A stretch of 64,000 nt of DNA from Escherichia coli (GTDB lineage: Bacteria; Pseudomonadota; Gammaproteobacteria; Enterobacterales; Enterobacteriaceae): NCBI RefSeq assembly GCF_041248615.1, contig NZ_CP158426.1. One strand, given 5' to 3'. Positions within the stretch are counted from its first letter, which is position 1. The number at the start of each line of letters is the position of its first letter. Below, piece after piece: positions 5,498 through 58,105 of the stretch. The notes beneath the pieces were generated by a model that saw only the letters and a program-made list of their open reading frames with translations, ran no database searches and was not told the origin of the DNA. The position numbers and the translations under genes are program-made.

Positions 5498-7141
5498 ATG
5501 CGCCAGGTATTATCGTCTCTTTTGGTGATTGCTGGACTTGTGAGTGGTCAGGCAATCGCCGCGCCTGAATCCCCCCCGCATGCTGATATCCGCGACAGCG
5601 GTTTTGTCTATTGCGTCAGCGGGCAAGTCAACACCTTTAACCCATCCAAAGCGAGCAGTGGGTTAATTGTCGATACCCTTGCCGCCCAGTTTTATGATCG
5701 ACTGCTGGATGTCGATCCCTATACCTATCGCCTGATGCCGGAACTTGCCGAAAGCTGGGAAGTTCTCGATAACGGCGCGACCTATCGCTTCCACCTGCGT
5801 CGCGATGTTCCGTTTCAAAAAACCGACTGGTTTACTCCCACTCGTAAAATGAATGCCGACGATGTGGTGTTTACCTTCCAGCGAATTTTTGACCGCAACA
5901 ACCCGTGGCATAACGTCAACGGCAGCAACTTCCCCTACTTCGACAGCCTGCAATTTGCCGATAACGTGAAAAGCGTCCGCAAACTGGATAATCATACGGT
6001 TGAGTTCCGACTCGCCCAGCCGGATGCTTCTTTTTTGTGGCACCTGGCGACCCATTATGCATCGGTCATGTCGGCAGAATATGCCCGGAAGTTAGAGAAA
6101 GAAGATCGTCAGGAACAACTCGACCGTCAGCCGGTCGGCACTGGACCGTATCAGTTGTCGGAATACCGCGCCGGGCAATTTATTCGCCTACAACGTCATG
6201 ATGACTTCTGGCGCGGCAAACCGTTAATGCCGCAGGTGGTGGTGGATTTAGGCTCCGGCGGCACCGGACGTCTGTCGAAACTCCTGACTGGTGAATGCGA
6301 CGTTCTGGCCTGGCCTGCTGCCAGCCAGCTATCCATTTTGCGTGACGACCCACGCTTGCGTTTAACGCTGCGTCCAGGGATGAATGTCGCCTATCTGGCA
6401 TTTAACACCGCTAAACCGCCGCTAAATAATCCCGCTGTCCGCCATGCGCTGGCACTGGCGATCAATAACCAGCGTCTGATGCAATCCATCTATTATGGTA
6501 CGGCTGAAACGGCAGCCTCTATTTTACCGCGCGCCTCGTGGGCCTATGACAACGAGGCTAAAATTACTGAATATAATCCGGCGAAATCGCGCGAACGGTT
6601 GAAGGCGTTGGGGCTGGAAAACTTAACGCTGAAACTGTGGGTACCAACACGTTCGCAGGCGTGGAACCCCAGTCCACTGAAAACTGCCGAATTGATTCAG
6701 GCGGATATGGCACAGGTTGGCGTAAAAGTGGTGATTGTGCCGGTAGAAGGTCGTTTTCAGGAGGCGCGGTTGATGGATATGAGCCATGATCTGACGTTAT
6801 CCGGTTGGGCGACGGACAGTAACGACCCGGACAGTTTCTTCCGTCCGTTACTGAGCTGCGCAGCAATTCATTCGCAGACCAACCTCGCCCACTGGTGCGA
6901 TCCGAAATTCGACAGCGTATTGCGTAAGGCGCTCTCTTCGCAGCAGCTGGCGGCGCGTATTGAAGCCTATGACGAAGCGCAAAGTATTCTGGCGCAGGAA
7001 TTACCTATTCTGCCGCTGGCGTCGTCATTGCGCTTGCAGGCCTATCGGTACGATATCAAAGGTCTGGTACTTAGTCCGTTTGGTAACGCCTCCTTTGCTG
7101 GGGTGTATCGCGAGAAACCGGATGAGGTGAAAAAACCATGA
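5498..7141 (+). CDS. sapA: peptide ABC transporter periplasmic binding protein SapA
   Basis: 547-aa ORF with N-terminal signal peptide; matches SapA; first gene of sapABCDF. Confidence 0.9.
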
Positions 7142-8103
7142 TTATCTTCACCTTACGCCGCATTTTGTTATTGATTGTCACCTTGTTCCTGCTGACCTTC
7201 GTTGGCTTCAGCTTGAGCTATTTCACCCCACATGCGCCGTTACAAGGCGCGTCACTGTGGAATGCCTGGGTGTTCTGGTTTAATGGCCTGATCCACTGGG
7301 ATTTTGGTGTTTCCAGCATTAACGGTCAACCGATTGCCGAACAGTTAAAAGAGGTCTTCCCGGCGACGATGGAACTGTGCATCCTCGCCTTCGGTTTTGC
7401 GCTGATTGTTGGCATCCCCGTGGGGATGATTGCCGGGATTACGCGCCATAAGTGGCAGGATAACTTGATCAACGCCATCGCCTTACTGGGCTTTTCCATC
7501 CCGGTGTTCTGGCTGGCGCTTCTGTTGACGCTGTTTTGTTCACTCACGCTAGGTTGGTTGCCCGTTTCAGGGCGTTTCGATCTGCTCTACGAAGTGAAAC
7601 CGATTACCGGTTTTGCGTTGATTGATGCCTGGCTTTCGGACTCACCATGGCGGGATGAAATGGTCATGAGCGCAATCCGCCATATGATATTGCCCGTGAT
7701 CACCCTGTCGGTTGCGCCAACAACTGAAGTGATCCGACTGATGCGTATTAGCACTATCGAAGTGTATGACCAGAACTATGTTAAAGCAGCGGCGACCCGC
7801 GGTTTGTCGCGCTTTACTATTTTGCGTCGCCACGTTCTGCATAACGCGTTACCTCCGGTTATTCCTCGCCTGGGCTTACAGTTTTCTACCATGCTGACGC
7901 TGGCGATGATCACCGAAATGGTTTTTAGCTGGCCGGGTTTAGGCCGCTGGTTAATTAACGCTATCCGCCAGCAGGATTACGCAGCCATTTCCGCCGGAGT
8001 GATGGTGTGTGGCTCACTGGTCATTATTGTTAACGTGATTTCTGATATTTTGGGTGCCATGGCTAACCCTCTGAAACATAAGGAATGGTATGCCTTACGA
8101 TAG
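7138..8103 (+). CDS. sapB: peptide ABC transporter permease SapB
   Basis: 321-aa polytopic membrane ORF; 4-nt ATGA overlap with the sapA stop. Confidence 0.9.
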
Positions 8104-34001: not shown

Positions 34002-34164
34002 AGCTCCTCCTTAATGACAGGGTTGCGACGCCCTGATTCTCTTCAGGGTGAATATTAAAGATAACACAAACATCGCGTAACGATTTGATAACAACCCAAA
34101 TTGATAAAAGAGGAGAAACCTTGTGGCAAAGCAAATGAAAACCCCGCCGCAGCGGGGTCAGGTA

Positions 34165-34260
34165 TCAGTGAGTAATGATCCAGAGGAATTCGGCCCAGAA
34201 GAGCATCGACAGAGAAAACGCGCCCATCCAGGACCAATATTTCATATTTGTGTTGATCAT
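34165..34260 (-). CDS. 31-aa hydrophobic small ORF upstream of acnA (possibly the small protein annotated as ymiC in K-12)
   Basis: hand translation of the minus strand gives MINTNMKYWSWMGAFSLSMLFWAEFLWIITH with an AAGGTG-like RBS; below the ORF-track length cutoff. Confidence 0.4.
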   Translation of the reverse strand: MINTNMKYWSWMGAFSLSMLFWAEFLWIITH

Positions 34261-34373
34261 AGGCTACACCTTTAACGGTTATTACTTTGTGTTGAGATAA
34301 CTCAACCTGTTATTGCTGCGGTGTATTAAAAGCCCTTTAATTCATTAAAAATGGGTAATAAGAATGATGATAA

Positions 34374-40227: not shown

Positions 40228-40905
40228 AAATGCGCCTGTAAGGCTCTGTTACCAGCCGCGCCCTAACAGGCGCATACGATCTGACATTTGCATTCAACTT
40301 CGTTACTTACGGCCCGTAAACGGGCTGCCCGGATAGGGAATCGATAACTGCTCCCCCATTTTATCCTCTTCAAGCTGGTGCTTTATGTAGTCCTGTATCT
40401 TCGCCGTGTTCTTACCCACCGTATCGACATAGTACCCTCGGCACCAGAACTCCCTGTTTCTGTATTTGAATTTCAAATCCCCAAACTGCTCGTAAAGCAT
40501 CAGACTGCTTTTCCCTTTCAGATATCCCATAAAGCCGGATACGCTCATTTTGGGTGGGATTTCCACAAGCATATGGATATGATCTGCGCAGCACTCTGCT
40601 TCCAGAATCCGTACGCTTTTCCACTCACACAGCTTTCTCAAAATACTGCCTATCGCCCTACGCTTCTCTCCGTAAAACGCCAGTCTTCGGTATTTCGGCG
40701 CAAAAACTATGTGATATTTACAGTTCCAGCGGGTGTGCGCTAAGCTCTTTTCGTCCCCCATTGGGACCCCCTTTTGATTTCTTGTTTGACACTTGCAGTT
40801 GCCAGACCGCAAGGTGTTTTAACAAATCAAAAGGGGTTTTAATAACTGGCTCAAAGCTGAAAGCTTTCCGGAACCCCCAGCCTAGCTGGGGGTTTTCTGT
40901 GCACA
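40228..40905 (-). mobile_element. IS200-type insertion sequence (IS200/IS605 family); boundaries approximate
   Basis: contains a Y1 transposase gene matching IS200 TnpA, plus the characteristic 5' structures: an end-proximal hairpin (40873..40893) and a long stem-loop (about 40767..40836) that occludes the tnpA RBS; no TSD, as expected for this family. Confidence 0.6.
40303..40761 (-). CDS. tnpA: IS200 transposase TnpA (HUH/Y1 family)
   Basis: 152-aa ORF from MGDEKSLAHTRWNCKYHIVFAPKYRR with the HxH motif (ADHIHML) and catalytic Tyr region; track ORF has a 17-aa extension. Confidence 0.9.
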   Translation of the reverse strand: MGDEKSLAHTRWNCKYHIVFAPKYRRLAFYGEKRRAIGSILRKLCEWKSVRILEAECCADHIHMLVEIPPKMSVSGFMGYLKGKSSLMLYEQFGDLKFKYRNREFWCRGYYVDTVGKNTAKIQDYIKHQLEEDKMGEQLSIPYPGSPFTGRK

Positions 40906-42208: not shown

Positions 42209-42967
42209 ATGCATTACCAGCCAAAACAAGATTTACTCAATGATCGCATTATCCTGGTGACGGGAGCCAGCGATGGTATTGGCCGTGAAGCCGCGATGAC
42301 GTATGCACGCTATGGTGCGACAGTGATTCTGTTGGGCCGTAATGAAGAAAAATTACGTCAGGTAGCCAGCCACATAAACGAAGAAACTGGACGTCAGCCA
42401 CAGTGGTTTATTCTCGATTTGCTGACCTGCACGTCCGAAGATTGCCAACAACTGGCACAGCGCATTGCCGTTAATTATCCGCGTCTGGATGGTGTTTTGC
42501 ATAATGCCGGATTGCTCGGCGATGTTTGCCCAATGAGCGAACAAAATCCGCAGGTCTGGCAGGACGTCATGCAGGTCAACGTTAATGCCACCTTTATGCT
42601 CACCCAGGCACTGCTTCCTTTATTACTCAAATCGGACGCCGGTTCACTGGTCTTTACTTCATCAAGCGTTGGACGTCAGGGACGAGCCAACTGGGGCGCA
42701 TATGCAGCGTCGAAATTTGCCACCGAAGGGATGATGCAGGTACTGGCCGATGAATATCAGCAGCGCCTGCGCGTCAACTGCATTAACCCAGGCGGTACGC
42801 GCACCGCAATGCGGGCCAGCGCCTTCCCGACCGAAGATCCACAGAAACTTAAAACACCCGCTGATATCATGCCGCTCTACCTCTGGCTGATGGGCGATGA
42901 CAGCCGCCGTAAAACCGGCATGACCTTTGACGCCCAACCGGGCCGTAAACCAGGAATTTCCCAATGA
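42209..42967 (+). CDS. yciK: short-chain dehydrogenase/reductase YciK
   Basis: 252-aa ORF with Rossmann motif TGASDGIG; matches YciK. Confidence 0.9.
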   Translation: MHYQPKQDLLNDRIILVTGASDGIGREAAMTYARYGATVILLGRNEEKLRQVASHINEETGRQPQWFILDLLTCTSEDCQQLAQRIAVNYPRLDGVLHNAGLLGDVCPMSEQNPQVWQDVMQVNVNATFMLTQALLPLLLKSDAGSLVFTSSSVGRQGRANWGAYAASKFATEGMMQVLADEYQQRLRVNCINPGGTRTAMRASAFPTEDPQKLKTPADIMPLYLWLMGDDSRRKTGMTFDAQPGRKPGISQ

Positions 42968-43554
42968 GTGATGAACGCTACCAACAGCGTCAGCAGCGAG
43001 TGAAAGAAAAAGTCGATGCTCGTGTGGCCCAGGCCCAGGATGAACGCGGTATTATCATCGTTTTTACCGGCAATGGAAAAGGCAAAACCACCGCGGCATT
43101 TGGTACGGCAACTCGTGCAGTAGGCCATGGCAAAAAAGTGGGTATCGTGCAGTTTATTAAAGGCACCTGGCCTAATGGCGAGCGCAATCTACTGGAGCCA
43201 CATGGCGTTGAGTTTCAGGTGATGGCAACGGGCTTTACCTGGGATACACAAAATCGCGAATCTGATACCGCGGCCTGCCGTGAAGTCTGGCAACATGCCA
43301 AACGAATGCTGGCCGATCCTTCACTGGATATGGTTTTGCTCGATGAGCTGACTTATATGGTGGCGTATGATTATTTGCCACTTGAAGAAGTGGTGAAGGC
43401 GTTAAATGAACGTCCACATCAGCAAACCGTCATTATTACGGGTCGTGGTTGTCATCGGGATATACTTGAACTGGCGGATACGGTAAGTGAATTACGCCCC
43501 GTGAAACATGCGTTTGATGCCGGTGTAAAAGCGCAGATAGGGATTGACTACTAA
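42964..43554 (+). CDS. btuR: cob(I)alamin adenosyltransferase BtuR (CobA)
   Basis: 196-aa ORF with P-loop GNGKGKTTAAFG; 4-nt overlap with yciK. Confidence 0.9.
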   Translation: MSDERYQQRQQRVKEKVDARVAQAQDERGIIIVFTGNGKGKTTAAFGTATRAVGHGKKVGIVQFIKGTWPNGERNLLEPHGVEFQVMATGFTWDTQNRESDTAACREVWQHAKRMLADPSLDMVLLDELTYMVAYDYLPLEEVVKALNERPHQQTVIITGRGCHRDILELADTVSELRPVKHAFDAGVKAQIGIDY

Positions 43555-43557
43555 GTG

Positions 43558-43590
43558 AAAGCACCTCAAAAGAAGCCTCTTGAGGTGCTT
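43558..43590. terminator. bidirectional hairpin between btuR and the accessory cassette
   Basis: inverted repeat agcacctcaa-aagaagcctc-ttgaggtgct flanked by A/T. Confidence 0.55.
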
Positions 43591-43605
43591 TAATCATGAT
43601 TATAT

Positions 43606-43914: not shown

Positions 43915-43924
43915 AAAAAGCCTC

Positions 43925-44926
43925 CTATAACATTATTCCGCTGGCAATAAGTAATTTTGCCAGCCCCTCAGACGCCTTTAACCCACTAATGACCTGTGCG
44001 CGTAATATTTCATTTAATCTTTTTTGTTCAGCTGCCGTGCGTGTTTTATTAACGTATAAGCTTTTTAGATAATCACCCTTATCTATAAAGGCATTTAAAG
44101 CCTCAATCGCAGGCATGGCAGGTGCCGATGCCTGTAGTCTGGTTTCATTCACATTGATTACTGAACTTAGAAACTCCTTCCTGTTTTTCAGAGTGTTAAA
44201 CTCTGTATTCTTAGAGTTTTTAGATGCTGTATTATAATAAAACATATTATCATGCACATTCGCAAAGGTATAATTTTCAATCTTATTGCTTTTTGTATAA
44301 ATATCATTGCGCAAAACCGCCATGTTCTTTATAAGTCTTACCCAGTTTTCATCTGCCGTTTTGCCTATTTTTCCAGAATTGACTTTAATTATATATAACT
44401 CATTGAAATAATTTACCAAATCTTTAACCGCTGCTGCAGATTGAACTAAATCTTTGCTATGTGAAACACCAAGTAGTGTTTGTGCGTTGTTTGCGTGATC
44501 CAGAGCCTGTTTAAGTAATGCCACTTGCTGACTTTCCGTAGTTGCCATATCCTTTGTCAGAAGTTCCACATAAGCGCTCATGCTATTAATGACTTCCATT
44601 GAAGCCAGTAATTTTTCTTTCTCGAAAGGGACTAATTGTACTTGTTTTGTATTTGGCCCTGAACGCTGGCATAATTTTCCGCCATTCCCATCACCGCCTA
44701 TATCAATGGTATAATCAGGTCGCAGAGCACAATCCGGATTAGTCGCGTAGAAATTAACAAGGAAGTTTTCACGAGAAGCATAGTATTGTTTAAAGAAACT
44801 TGCATTCGCCGCTACTGCTTTGTTACCCGCAGTAATAACAGTTTCAGCTTGTTCGTTTTTCAATGCTTCAGTTGCACAACCTGAAAGCATTAACAGCGAT
44901 AGAAATATTCCACTATATCTAATCAT
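43925..44926 (-). CDS. hypothetical lipoprotein (333 aa), first gene of the AT-rich accessory cassette
   Basis: intact ORF with strong SD AAGAGGTGGG; type II signal peptide with lipobox LSGC; Ala at +2 predicts outer-membrane sorting; N/K/S-rich composition; no family recognised. Confidence 0.6.
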   Translation of the reverse strand: MIRYSGIFLSLLMLSGCATEALKNEQAETVITAGNKAVAANASFFKQYYASRENFLVNFYATNPDCALRPDYTIDIGGDGNGGKLCQRSGPNTKQVQLVPFEKEKLLASMEVINSMSAYVELLTKDMATTESQQVALLKQALDHANNAQTLLGVSHSKDLVQSAAAVKDLVNYFNELYIIKVNSGKIGKTADENWVRLIKNMAVLRNDIYTKSNKIENYTFANVHDNMFYYNTASKNSKNTEFNTLKNRKEFLSSVINVNETRLQASAPAMPAIEALNAFIDKGDYLKSLYVNKTRTAAEQKRLNEILRAQVISGLKASEGLAKLLIASGIML

Positions 44927-45051
44927 AACCCACCTCTTGACGTTGAGTTTATCTCAGATAATTAAATAGTAATGTGGCTATTTCCGGGTATTATTCATAA
45001 GCAAGTATGAAATTAAATTAAAATACTGCGACTATTTATCATGCTTCAAAT

Positions 45052-45080
45052 GAAGAAAAGGCCCCGCAGGGCCTTTATTT
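45052..45080. terminator. rluB terminator hairpin (bidirectional)
   Basis: ggccc-cgca-gggcc stem flanked by A-run and T-run. Confidence 0.55.
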
Positions 45081-45095
45081 TATACTTATCTTAAA

Positions 45096-45971
45096 TTAAC
45101 CGTTATTATTACGTCCGCCAGAACGGCGACCACCGCTCACCTGGCTATGACGTTTCACCGCACGACGAATCTGATTCGCCTTCATGCGACGACGGTCTTT
45201 TTCTACAGCGACTTTAGAGCTGGTTTCTGGCGGCAGCTCCACCAGTTCGCGCAGGTAGTTAGTCTGGGCGAGGTCCAGCTCCGTCCAGCCACCGCGTGGC
45301 AGACCTTTTGGCAGTGGGATATCACCGTAACGAACACGGATCAGGCGGCTTACCTGCACACCAACCGCTTCCCACAGACGACGAACTTCACGGTTACGGC
45401 CTTCGGTCAGAGTTACGTTGTACCACTGGTTGATCCCTTCGCCGCCGCTGAACTTGATGGTTTTAAAGGCTGCCGGACCATCTTCCAGCTGCACACCACG
45501 GCTTAAATCACGCAGTTTCGCGTCGTCAACCTGACCAAATACACGCACGGCATATTCACGTTCAACTTCACGGCTTGGGTGCATTAAACGGTTTGCCAGT
45601 TCACCATCGGTGGTGAACAGCAGCAGACCACAGGTATTAACGTCCAGGCGACCCACGGCAATCCAGCGTGCGCCACGCAGTTTTGGCAGACGGTCAAACA
45701 CCGTTGGACGTCCTTCCGGATCGTTACGGGTACACAACTCACCTTCCGGTTTGTAATAGGCCAGAACGCGACAAATTTGTTCAGCGGACTCACGTACCGA
45801 AATCAGGTGACCATCGATACGGATTTTCAATCCAGGGGTAATTTCAACACGATCGCCGAGTTTAGCAATTTTGCCATCAACACTCACACGACCGGCTTCA
45901 ATAATAGATTCGATTTCACGGCGAGAGCCGTGGCCGGCACGCGCCAGCACTTTCTGTAGCTTTTCGCTCAT
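45096..45971 (-). CDS. rluB: 23S rRNA pseudouridine(2605) synthase RluB
   Basis: 291-aa ORF matching RluB (S4 domain plus pseudouridine synthase core; Arg/Gly-rich C-terminus). Confidence 0.9.
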
Positions 45972-56967: not shown

Positions 56968-57052
56968 TTCACCGTTAATTATTAATATCAGCTGATAAAG
57001 ATAATTTCATCTGCGGGCCGTATGGCTCGCAGTGATTCCACTGGAGAAAAAT

Positions 57053-57553
57053 ATGAATATGAAGACCATTGAAGATGTATTTATTCACCTGCTTTCAGAT
57101 ACCTACAGCGCAGAAAAACAATTAACCCGTGCACTGGCAAAACTCGCTAGAGCAACATCAAACGAAAAATTAAGTCAGGCTTTTCATGCGCACCTCGAGG
57201 AAACTCATGGACAGATTGAACGAATTGATCAAGTTGTGGAATCTGAATCGAACCTGAAAATTAAGCGCATGAAATGTGTGGCAATGGAAGGTCTCATTGA
57301 AGAAGCTAATGAGGTTATCGAAAGCACCGAGAAAAACGAAGTGCGTGATGCCGCACTGATTGCCGCAGCGCAGAAAGTCGAGCACTATGAGATCGCCAGT
57401 TACGGGACATTAGCGACGCTGGCTGAACAATTAGGTTACCGTAAAGCAGCGAAGCTTCTGAAAGAAACTCTTGAAGAAGAAAAGGCCACCGACATCAAAC
57501 TGACTGATCTGGCACTTAATAACGTAAATAAGAAAGCCGAAAATAAAGCCTGA
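57053..57553 (+). CDS. yciF: ferritin-like stress protein YciF (DUF892)
   Basis: ORF matches YciF from MNMKTIEDVFIHLL (166 aa). Confidence 0.85.
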   Translation: MNMKTIEDVFIHLLSDTYSAEKQLTRALAKLARATSNEKLSQAFHAHLEETHGQIERIDQVVESESNLKIKRMKCVAMEGLIEEANEVIESTEKNEVRDAALIAAAQKVEHYEIASYGTLATLAEQLGYRKAAKLLKETLEEEKATDIKLTDLALNNVNKKAENKA

Positions 57554-57598
57554 AATATGAATTTTCACTTTTAGTCATTTTATAAAGAGGACATTTTC

Positions 57599-58105
57599 AT
57601 GAATCGTATTGAACATTATCATGACTGGTTACGTGACGCCCACGCAATGGAAAAGCAAGCCGAATCTATGCTTGAATCCATGGCCAGTCGTATAGATAAT
57701 TATCCTGAACTACGCGCTCGTATTGAACAACATCTTAGTGAAACCAAAAACCAGATTGTTCAACTGGAAACTATTCTTGATCGTAATGACATTTCACGTT
57801 CAGTCATTAAAGATTCCATGAGTAAAATGGCTGCGCTTGGGCAGTCAATCGGTGGTATATTCCCTTCTGATGAAATAGTCAAAGGCTCTATTAGCGGATA
57901 TGTCTTCGAGCAATTTGAAATCGCCTGTTACACCTCACTCTTAGCAGCAGCAAAAAATGCCGGTGATACAGCTTCAATTCCAACCATCGAAGCGATTTTA
58001 AATGAGGAAAAAGAAATGGCCGACTGGCTGATTCAGCATATTCCGCAAACAACTGAGAAATTTTTAATTCGCTCTGAAACTGATGGCGTAGAAGCGAAGA
58101 AATAA
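57599..58105 (+). CDS. yciE: ferritin-like stress protein YciE (DUF892)
   Basis: 168-aa ORF matching YciE; paralogous to the upstream yciF. Confidence 0.85.
   Translation: MNRIEHYHDWLRDAHAMEKQAESMLESMASRIDNYPELRARIEQHLSETKNQIVQLETILDRNDISRSVIKDSMSKMAALGQSIGGIFPSDEIVKGSISGYVFEQFEIACYTSLLAAAKNAGDTASIPTIEAILNEEKEMADWLIQHIPQTTEKFLIRSETDGVEAKK

Follow-up and report, generated by a model that had tools for sequence, protein, structure and literature searches.

The window analyzed here, a stretch of 64,000 nucleotides of Escherichia coli chromosome (contig NZ_CP158426.1), carries on its minus strand a gene for a 333-residue lipoprotein (43925 to 44926) that is directly followed by a gene for a small cytoplasmic partner. 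None of the libraries that we searched contains the lipoprotein family or its two-gene architecture, and the family is undescribed. We propose that the pair is a two-gene conflict module acting at the cell envelope, in exclusion or in defense, and we put the probability of this candidate reading at roughly 40%. Fast evolution under constraint, the variation of a hairpin, a presence/absence pattern with old alleles, the mobility of the two-gene unit, the constant presence of the partner, and the lack of an enzyme or toxin signature all speak for this proposal. A preliminary description of this DNA had given the lipoprotein open reading frame (ORF) but not its minus strand, its 102-residue partner, or its setting in a low-GC islet.

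The lipoprotein and its predicted fold

The lipoprotein ORF starts with ATG and is present in RefSeq as WP_001590089.1 under the name "hypothetical protein." Its call comes from the ORF listing, an identical annotated coding sequence in NZ_OW967178, substitution rates, family alignments, and an AlphaFold2 model. It is a real gene and not a chance ORF, because the ratio of nonsynonymous to synonymous substitution rates (dN/dS) is 0.10 to 0.23 among the copies of E. coli, Escherichia albertii, and Citrobacter, and because the protein belongs to a wider family. Residues 1 to 17 (44876 to 44926, minus strand) read directly as a type II signal peptide. The N terminus, MIRYSGIFLSLLMLSG-C17-ATE, has a basic n-region (R3), a hydrophobic core, and the lipobox L-S-G-C17, which agrees with the pattern [LVI][ASTVI][GAS]-C of Lgt/LspA/Lnt substrates, and 97% of the distant relatives retain the lipobox cysteine. 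Export and lipid modification at C17 are strongly predicted. Position +2 is Ala and position +3 is Thr, the Asp that causes retention in the inner membrane is absent from +2, and according to the +2 rule the protein is predicted to be sorted by Lol to the outer membrane. The signal peptide and the sorting had both been claimed in the preliminary description, as had a Shine-Dalgarno sequence, which is indeed present as AAGAGGTGGG 2 nucleotides ahead of the ATG (44929 to 44938, minus strand); its AGGTGGG is preserved in E. albertii and Citrobacter. The protein is basic (pI 8.9) and has a mature length of about 316 residues.

Two additional cysteines, C66 (PDCAL) and C86 (KLCQR), enclose the loop DIGGDGNGGK. 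Across 47 aligned family members, C66, C86, and Y119 never vary and the lipobox cysteine hardly does; with the C66/C86 pair present in 47 of 47 sequences, the disulfide that had been considered possible is now probable. Searches for a recognizable domain gave no usable match, as the preliminary description had noted. Pfam yielded nothing for the lipoprotein even at an E-value of ≤10 and, among the 47 members, no match specific to the family beyond weak hits to HEPN_DZIP3; NCBIfam and PHROGs gave sub-threshold matches to the signal peptide only, PADLOC gave none, and a search of PDB sequences with the family profile returned only weak coiled-coil noise. A HEPN identity (HEPN_DZIP3 in 1 of the 47 members at an E-value of ≤1e−3 and in 3 at ≤0.1) was rejected because no Rx4-6H motif is conserved and the family has no conserved His at all. 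Neighboring proteins and distant family members gave nothing useful in the domain libraries, and a literature search by locus, accession, and topic found nothing on the lipoprotein gene.

Our AlphaFold2 model, made from the 47-sequence alignment, has a predicted local distance difference test score (pLDDT) of 75.7 and a predicted template modeling score of 0.76; it replaced a first model on a shallow 12-sequence alignment (pLDDT 51), which was too poor. The model strongly predicts that the lipoprotein folds as a long all-helical bundle beginning at the lipid anchor. It has eight helices, at residues 30 to 62 (continuous with 18 to 27 right after the lipid-bearing cysteine), 103 to 124, 131 to 153, 158 to 184, 188 to 232, 246 to 266, 271 to 292, and 298 to 330, and pLDDT falls below 50 at residues 234 to 238. 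The C-terminal two-thirds are thus helical, as had been expected from composition, but helices span the whole mature protein with the exception of a β-hairpin with strands at 73 to 77 and 93 to 97. In the model, this hairpin sits where the first helix ends, distal to the lipid anchor, and lies between and just after the two invariant cysteines. Since the hairpin follows a first helix of about 45 residues, its tip should stand approximately 65 Å from the anchor. The cysteine pair and the hairpin together (residues 66 to 97) correspond to 44636 to 44731 on the minus strand, as placed by the 47-member alignment, the allele comparison, and the model.

The fold resembles periplasmic four-helix-bundle binding or sensor domains and helical-bundle surface lipoproteins, a resemblance that we count in favor of a conflict module. 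Alternatively, the protein could be an accessory lipoprotein of envelope physiology, related in fold to DUF3829/YiiG, to imelysin-like proteins, or to four-helix-bundle sensors. It would then bind or sense a metal or another small ligand in the periplasm, the partner would assist it, and the patchy occurrence would reflect niche adaptation. We consider this unlikely. In its favor, Foldseek first returned full-length family-like proteins (16 to 19% identity), several of them automatically named "imelysin-like" or "PilJ/NarX-like," and then, outside the family, DUF3829, DUF3080, DUF4142, and unnamed lipoproteins at a template modeling (TM) score of about 0.5 and E-values of 1e−3 to 1e−1; a search against viral models found nothing. 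DUF3829 (YiiG) and imelysin-like lipoproteins share with our protein the size (about 300 to 350 residues), the lipoprotein signal, and a stacked helical bundle, but unlike the module they have no known partner gene and no hypervariable alleles. A link at the sequence level is lacking: none of the 47 members matched DUF3829/YiiG (PF12889) or any such Pfam family, and hhalign against YiiG/DUF3829 gave a probability of 4.7% that came from the signal peptide only, so that the homology to a housekeeping lipoprotein raised in the preliminary description as a competing outcome was not found. An identity as imelysin-like Peptidase_M75 was likewise rejected, there being no PF09375 match and no conservation of HxxE or of another ligand-binding motif. 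The sensors TorS, NarX/PilJ, and Tar/Tsr contain similar bundles as domains of transmembrane kinases or chemoreceptors, whereas the bundle described here is a free-standing lipoprotein without a transmitter, and the likeness is that of a very common fold.

The partner gene

The partner gene (WP_001000710.1; 43606 to 43914, minus strand, from the ORF listing) encodes 102 residues and starts 10 nucleotides after the lipoprotein stop codon, which its own Shine-Dalgarno sequence (GGAGGC, 43920 to 43925) overlaps. By its sequence layout, the lipoprotein gene is the first gene of a two-gene operon and is co-transcribed with the partner. The partner protein is acidic (pI 4.6), has neither a signal peptide nor a transmembrane segment, and is under purifying selection (dN/dS of 0.11 to 0.16 among the E. 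coli, E. albertii, and Citrobacter copies). It matched nothing useful in Pfam, NCBIfam, PHROGs, or PADLOC. C26-x-x-C29-H30, a CxxCH string, and H88 are invariant in the enteric partner proteins and could form a metal site; the CxxCH motif is absent from distant partners, and the partner at locus L015 has no cysteine at all.

In all 20 loci that we inspected, the next gene after that of the lipoprotein is a co-oriented partner gene. The gap between the two is at most 27 nucleotides in the 16 loci where it was computed, and the partner is 96 to 113 residues long in ten lineages. In four Sphingomonas loci (L016, at 7032 to 7799, and L023, L024, and L025), the partner has 253 to 275 residues and consists of a soluble N-terminal part and about four transmembrane segments. 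At another sphingomonad locus (L017, 7035 to 9356), it is a 773-residue HExxH protein, followed by a trypsin-like protein and a gene with a Trypco2 domain. The partners of E. coli and of a Buttiauxella prophage are homologous (hhalign 87%, E-value of 4e−6), and those of Methylomonas and Chlorobi share 40% identity; across subfamilies, the small partners show no detectable similarity to each other. We considered that the small partner might form the N terminus of the longer sphingomonad proteins (255 residues with transmembrane segments and 773 residues with HExxH) and found no similarity, a weak negative because the small partners of different subfamilies are not detectably similar either. Three loci, from Methylomonas, Sphingosinicellaceae, and Chlorobi, have in addition a co-oriented gene for a multi-transmembrane protein of 348 to 413 residues directly upstream of the lipoprotein gene (L011, 4719 to 5960; L015, 4752 to 5990; L013, 4864 to 5910). 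These upstream proteins are alike in size and topology and have no detectable homology to one another.

A constant small partner would also suit a pair of toxin and antidote. The basic lipoprotein would then damage the envelope of the producer (as in addiction or abortive infection) or, like the SitA lipoprotein toxins of myxobacteria, that of a neighbor, and the acidic partner would neutralize it prior to its export or once it has been imported. The order, sizes, and charges of the two gene products match those of a toxin followed by its immunity protein; the partner is a small adjacent gene, obligate in all loci, and it co-varies with the lipoprotein, the dN values of the two genes shifting in parallel. 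The larger sphingomonad partners with about four transmembrane segments, and the HExxH protein at one locus, can be counted on the same side. Yet no recognizable toxin domain was found by Pfam, NCBIfam, or PDB profile searches, the lipoprotein carries no enzyme or toxin signature that we could find, and the family-wide invariants are limited to two cysteines and one tyrosine. With no conserved toxin or enzyme motif, the suggestion in the preliminary description that the protein could be an effector is unsupported. Moreover, the single helical bundle lacks a hydrophobic hairpin of the kind found in pore-forming colicins, the module comes without secretion or exchange machinery, and the two proteins are predicted to reside in different compartments. 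We regard a toxin and its antidote as an improbable explanation.

The SitA/SitI system of Myxococcus has a related gene order, a lipobox protein and then a small cytoplasmic cognate, with polymorphic alleles and an association with mobile elements. The E. coli module is likewise a lipobox protein directly followed by a small cytoplasmic cognate. SitA, however, has C-terminal nuclease-type toxin domains and needs outer-membrane exchange by TraAB; the module has neither, and its variable part is an internal hairpin.

Allelic types and the islet

In the window, the pair sits between cobO/btuR (42964 to 43554, plus strand) and rluB (45096 to 45971, minus strand). With a GC content of 30 to 40% (about 37%) against 50 to 57% in the flanks, the two-gene islet is the lowest-GC kilobase of the window. 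K-12 has just 39 bp between rluB and btuR. Of 5,426 complete E. coli genomes, 1,237 (about 23%) contain islet DNA; in 4,187 of 5,422, cobO and rluB are adjacent and the site is empty. Two types exist: the 333-residue type of the window in 424 genomes at a coverage of at least 80%, and a 340-residue type (WP_000622024, with partner WP_001000715) in 776.

The two types are 65% identical in the lipoprotein. Their promoters and first 60 or so codons are nearly identical (dN of 0 and a synonymous rate, dS, of 0.16 to 0.41); past about codon 60, synonymous sites are saturated or nearly so. Overall dS between the types is 1.07; when the flanking genes of their carriers are compared, it is 0.135 in rluB and 0.42 in cobO. 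The higher value for cobO than for rluB, the other flank, suggests that the old allelic divergence or a recombination tract extends into cobO. The pair occupies the same rluB-cobO site in E. albertii and Citrobacter, and the 340-residue type differs from the E. albertii copy by a dS of 0.82, compared with 0.62 to 0.96 for the flanking genes. From the same-site copies with flank-like dS and the diverged types, we infer that the islet has long resided at this locus, that most E. coli strains (about 77%) have lost it, and that it is kept as deeply diverged alleles. Such apparently vertical inheritance at a core-genome site in three species would suit a lipoprotein of envelope physiology, and long persistence at one site together with easy loss argues against a strongly addictive toxin. 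Deep alleles within a species and a hypervariable tip, in turn, are not what one expects of a nutrient-binding protein.

Both genes evolve faster than their surroundings under continued constraint (dN/dS of 0.10 to 0.23 for the lipoprotein and 0.11 to 0.16 for the partner, against 0.01 to 0.04 for the flanking cobO and rluB). Among the 333-residue alleles of E. coli, the mean difference between pairs is 37% in residues 73 to 97, 19% in residues 181 to 245, and 3 to 10% in the four other regions measured, and dN peaks at 0.75 in codons 76 to 105. Because the variation concentrates there, the Gly-rich loop is a hypervariable spot flanked by unchanging cysteines. The DIGGDGNGGK sequence singled out in the preliminary description is therefore present, but as this spot and not as a conserved motif. 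The second variable region, residues 181 to 245 (44192 to 44386, minus strand), comprises the long helix 188 to 232 and the low-confidence loop 233 to 245, and it differs by 47% between pairs of 340-residue alleles. The combination of two deep allelic types with a loss of about 77% is a pattern typical of frequency-dependent, arms-race selection.

Antibody pressure could also drive the variation of a hairpin, if the lipoprotein were a surface-exposed variable antigen or host-interaction factor (in serum resistance, adhesion, or immune evasion) in the manner of TraT, Bor, or the helical-bundle lipoproteins of Borrelia. A cysteine-associated hypervariable hairpin at the end of a helical bundle, and the many human clinical isolates among the listed carriers, are in line with such a role. 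The listed carriers also come from cattle, chicken, dogs, river water, and seawater, though, and the family occurs in free-living Methylomonas, Chlorobi, and soil sphingomonads; the cytoplasmic partner would be left unexplained; and the structural matches to Borrelia proteins are generic four-helix bundles, no better than de novo designed ones. We thus think a role as a surface antigen very unlikely.

The borders of the islet are marked by hairpins. Between cobO and the partner gene, a GC-rich hairpin read from the sequence (AAAGCACCTCAA...TTGAGGTGCTTT, 43558 to 43591) is a probable bidirectional terminator; it stands in place of the different hairpin that the 39-bp spacer of K-12 holds. At the upstream boundary, a terminator scan located the rluB terminator hairpin (45057 to 45076), which is preserved in all four species or alleles aligned. 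The region upstream of the lipoprotein gene contains a perfect inverted repeat, TTCATA-N6-TATGAA (44994 to 45011), that may be an operator. It is kept in E. coli, E. albertii, and Citrobacter (5 of 6 positions in one arm in Citrobacter), with synonymous sites saturated, and occurs once in the window; at least one match was also found in 19% of shuffles. In this upstream region, the promoter calls for the minus strand included no σ70-like one, and no Rfam family matched in or around the islet.

A few observations concern the surrounding DNA. In one strain, an IS1 insertion occupies the empty rluB-cobO site, and in another it lies inside the islet (genome matches H16 and H46). In E. coli, yciQ (DUF2207) separates yciO from rluB; the Citrobacter and E. 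albertii loci (L003 and L006) lack it at the matching place. NZ_OW967178, which matches the window with 100% identity over the islet segment, has an IS200/IS605 tnpA annotated between yciN and sohB, where K-12 has no such gene. Elsewhere in the window, Rfam matched STnc490 (146 bits; 40771 to 40894, minus strand) and, at full length, the small RNA STnc180 (199 bits; 34131 to 34333, minus strand) within a low-GC kilobase (0.418); a further low-GC kilobase (0.415) spans 57001 to 58000.

Genomic contexts and possible function

A profile search of 1.84 billion cluster representatives returned 58 matches, about 35 of them full length (324 to 357 residues, 15 to 25% identity), and a repeat protein search with the family alignment added no members. 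The named sources are Buttiauxella, Raoultella, Klebsiella, Rahnella, Pantoea, Methylomonas, a metagenome-assembled genome of Chlorobiaceae, Sphingomonas, Novosphingobium, and Sphingosinicellaceae, and all distant members are annotated as hypothetical. One wider locus scan returned three Sphingomonas loci only.

Mobile DNA surrounds several of these genes. In Buttiauxella, the module occupies exactly the nonessential orf30 slot between the tail genes S and V (gpS/gpV) of a P2-like prophage. The Raoultella copy lies in an island with an integrase, AlpA, an insertion sequence, putAbiC, and HicB; the Methylomonas copy adjoins VapBC, Fic, and a Y1 transposase; the Sphingosinicellaceae copy adjoins IS110; the Rahnella copy stands between resolvases and transposases, with a pore-forming colicin gene 2.5 kb away; and on a metagenomic contig (locus L027), the module adjoins a colicin/pyocin DNase-immunity pair, IS3, and TacAT. 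In the enteric loci, the GC content of the module is below that of its flanks. Judged by these neighborhoods, the two genes are a unit moved by a prophage and other mobile elements. The contexts speak against a lipoprotein of envelope physiology, for which FecI/FecR/TonB-receptor genes near the module in two loci can nevertheless be cited; the abundance of toxin-antitoxin genes, colicin genes, and mobile elements would equally suit a toxin with its antidote.

P2 orf30 itself, considered as a relative, is an unrelated multi-transmembrane protein. The defense hotspot of P2 adjoins cos, a site other than the orf30 slot (PMC9122126). No copies on genuine plasmids were found, the "plasmid" matches being mislabeled pieces of chromosome. 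The PLSDB records NZ_CP134663.1, CP054249.1, and CP054253.1 are filed as E. coli plasmids and appear to be or to contain chromosome; one of these records is 4.9 Mb long and one, of 33 kb, carries trpL, and for CP054253.1 (252 kb) a chromosomal origin is only suspected. A 33% identity match in CP054249.1 probably results from assembly errors.

By analogy, the closest known systems are the envelope lipoproteins Cor, Llp, TraT, and Bor, which are borne by mobile elements and whose specific membership features the module does not share. Cor (phages phi80, N15, and HK022) and Llp (phage T5) are outer-membrane lipoproteins carried by phages or prophages that act at the envelope, Llp being dependent on a disulfide. 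A likeness to them is that one relative of our module is a moron inside the P2-like prophage of Buttiauxella. However, Cor and Llp are encoded by single genes, have about 60 to 80 residues, and block FhuA, whereas the lipoprotein described here has a predicted all-helical bundle of about 316 residues and a constant partner, is not similar to any PHROG lipoprotein family, and in E. coli is encoded on the chromosome outside a prophage. TraT (surface exclusion by the F plasmid) and Bor/Iss (serum resistance, phage lambda) are accessory, strain-variable outer-membrane lipoproteins on mobile elements; they are single genes without such a hypervariable, cysteine-bracketed hairpin and have no sequence or Pfam relation to our protein.

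Returning to an envelope conflict module, we hypothesize that the helical bundle extends away from the outer membrane, toward either the periplasm or the outside, and that the variable tip of the hairpin contacts a fast-evolving foreign ligand. This ligand might be a phage component for genome delivery or receptor binding, or an incoming bacteriocin. The lipoprotein would either block entry, in the manner of superinfection exclusion, or serve as a sensor of the invader. Its partner, small, acidic, and cytoplasmic, made from the same mRNA and diverged in step, would be a cognate regulator, an antidote, or an output subunit. The genomic contexts that we found agree with the guess in the preliminary description that the lipoprotein masks a receptor or acts in exclusion, which is still a candidate reading.

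Several observations weigh against this proposal. The copies of E. coli, E. albertii, and Citrobacter occupy a core-genome site without neighboring defense genes and, having a dS like that of their flanks, appear to be vertically inherited; those of Chlorobi and Pantoea lie in chromosome of ordinary appearance. PADLOC-DB v2 was searched with the lipoprotein and its partner, with six lipoproteins and four partners from distant relatives, and with nine neighboring proteins, and none of these matched; PHROG had no match for any family member or partner tested. The orf30 copy of Buttiauxella is the only prophage example known, because INPHARED, IMG/VR, and BFVD gave no homolog of the family. In E. 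coli, the module is without a membrane protein, and the cytoplasmic partner has no obvious route to the exported lipoprotein. Finally, how the tip is placed with respect to the membrane is read from a model with a pLDDT of 76.

A broader version of the proposal is doubtful at present. According to it, the pair would be a previously unrecognized two-gene envelope immunity system, in which a lipid-anchored bundle, together with a small cytoplasmic partner, would recognize or block a phage or bacteriocin component by means of a hypervariable tip that two invariant cysteines bracket; it would be scattered on mobile elements across Proteobacteria and Chlorobi, and its specificity alleles would be held in a balanced polymorphism that predates the split of E. 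coli and E. albertii.

In summary, the lipoprotein pair is a well-defined and easily testable candidate and not yet a discovery. The operon is present in about one of every four complete E. coli genomes, where both of its products are annotated only as hypothetical proteins. If the pair does act in envelope defense or exclusion, it would represent a novel type of system, which joins an exported sensor or blocker to a cytoplasmic partner and escapes today's defense-finding tools, and it could affect the host range of phage therapy in clinical lineages. If it does something else, it would still establish a new family of lipoproteins, marked by a conserved Cys-Cys-Tyr signature and by an obligate partner.

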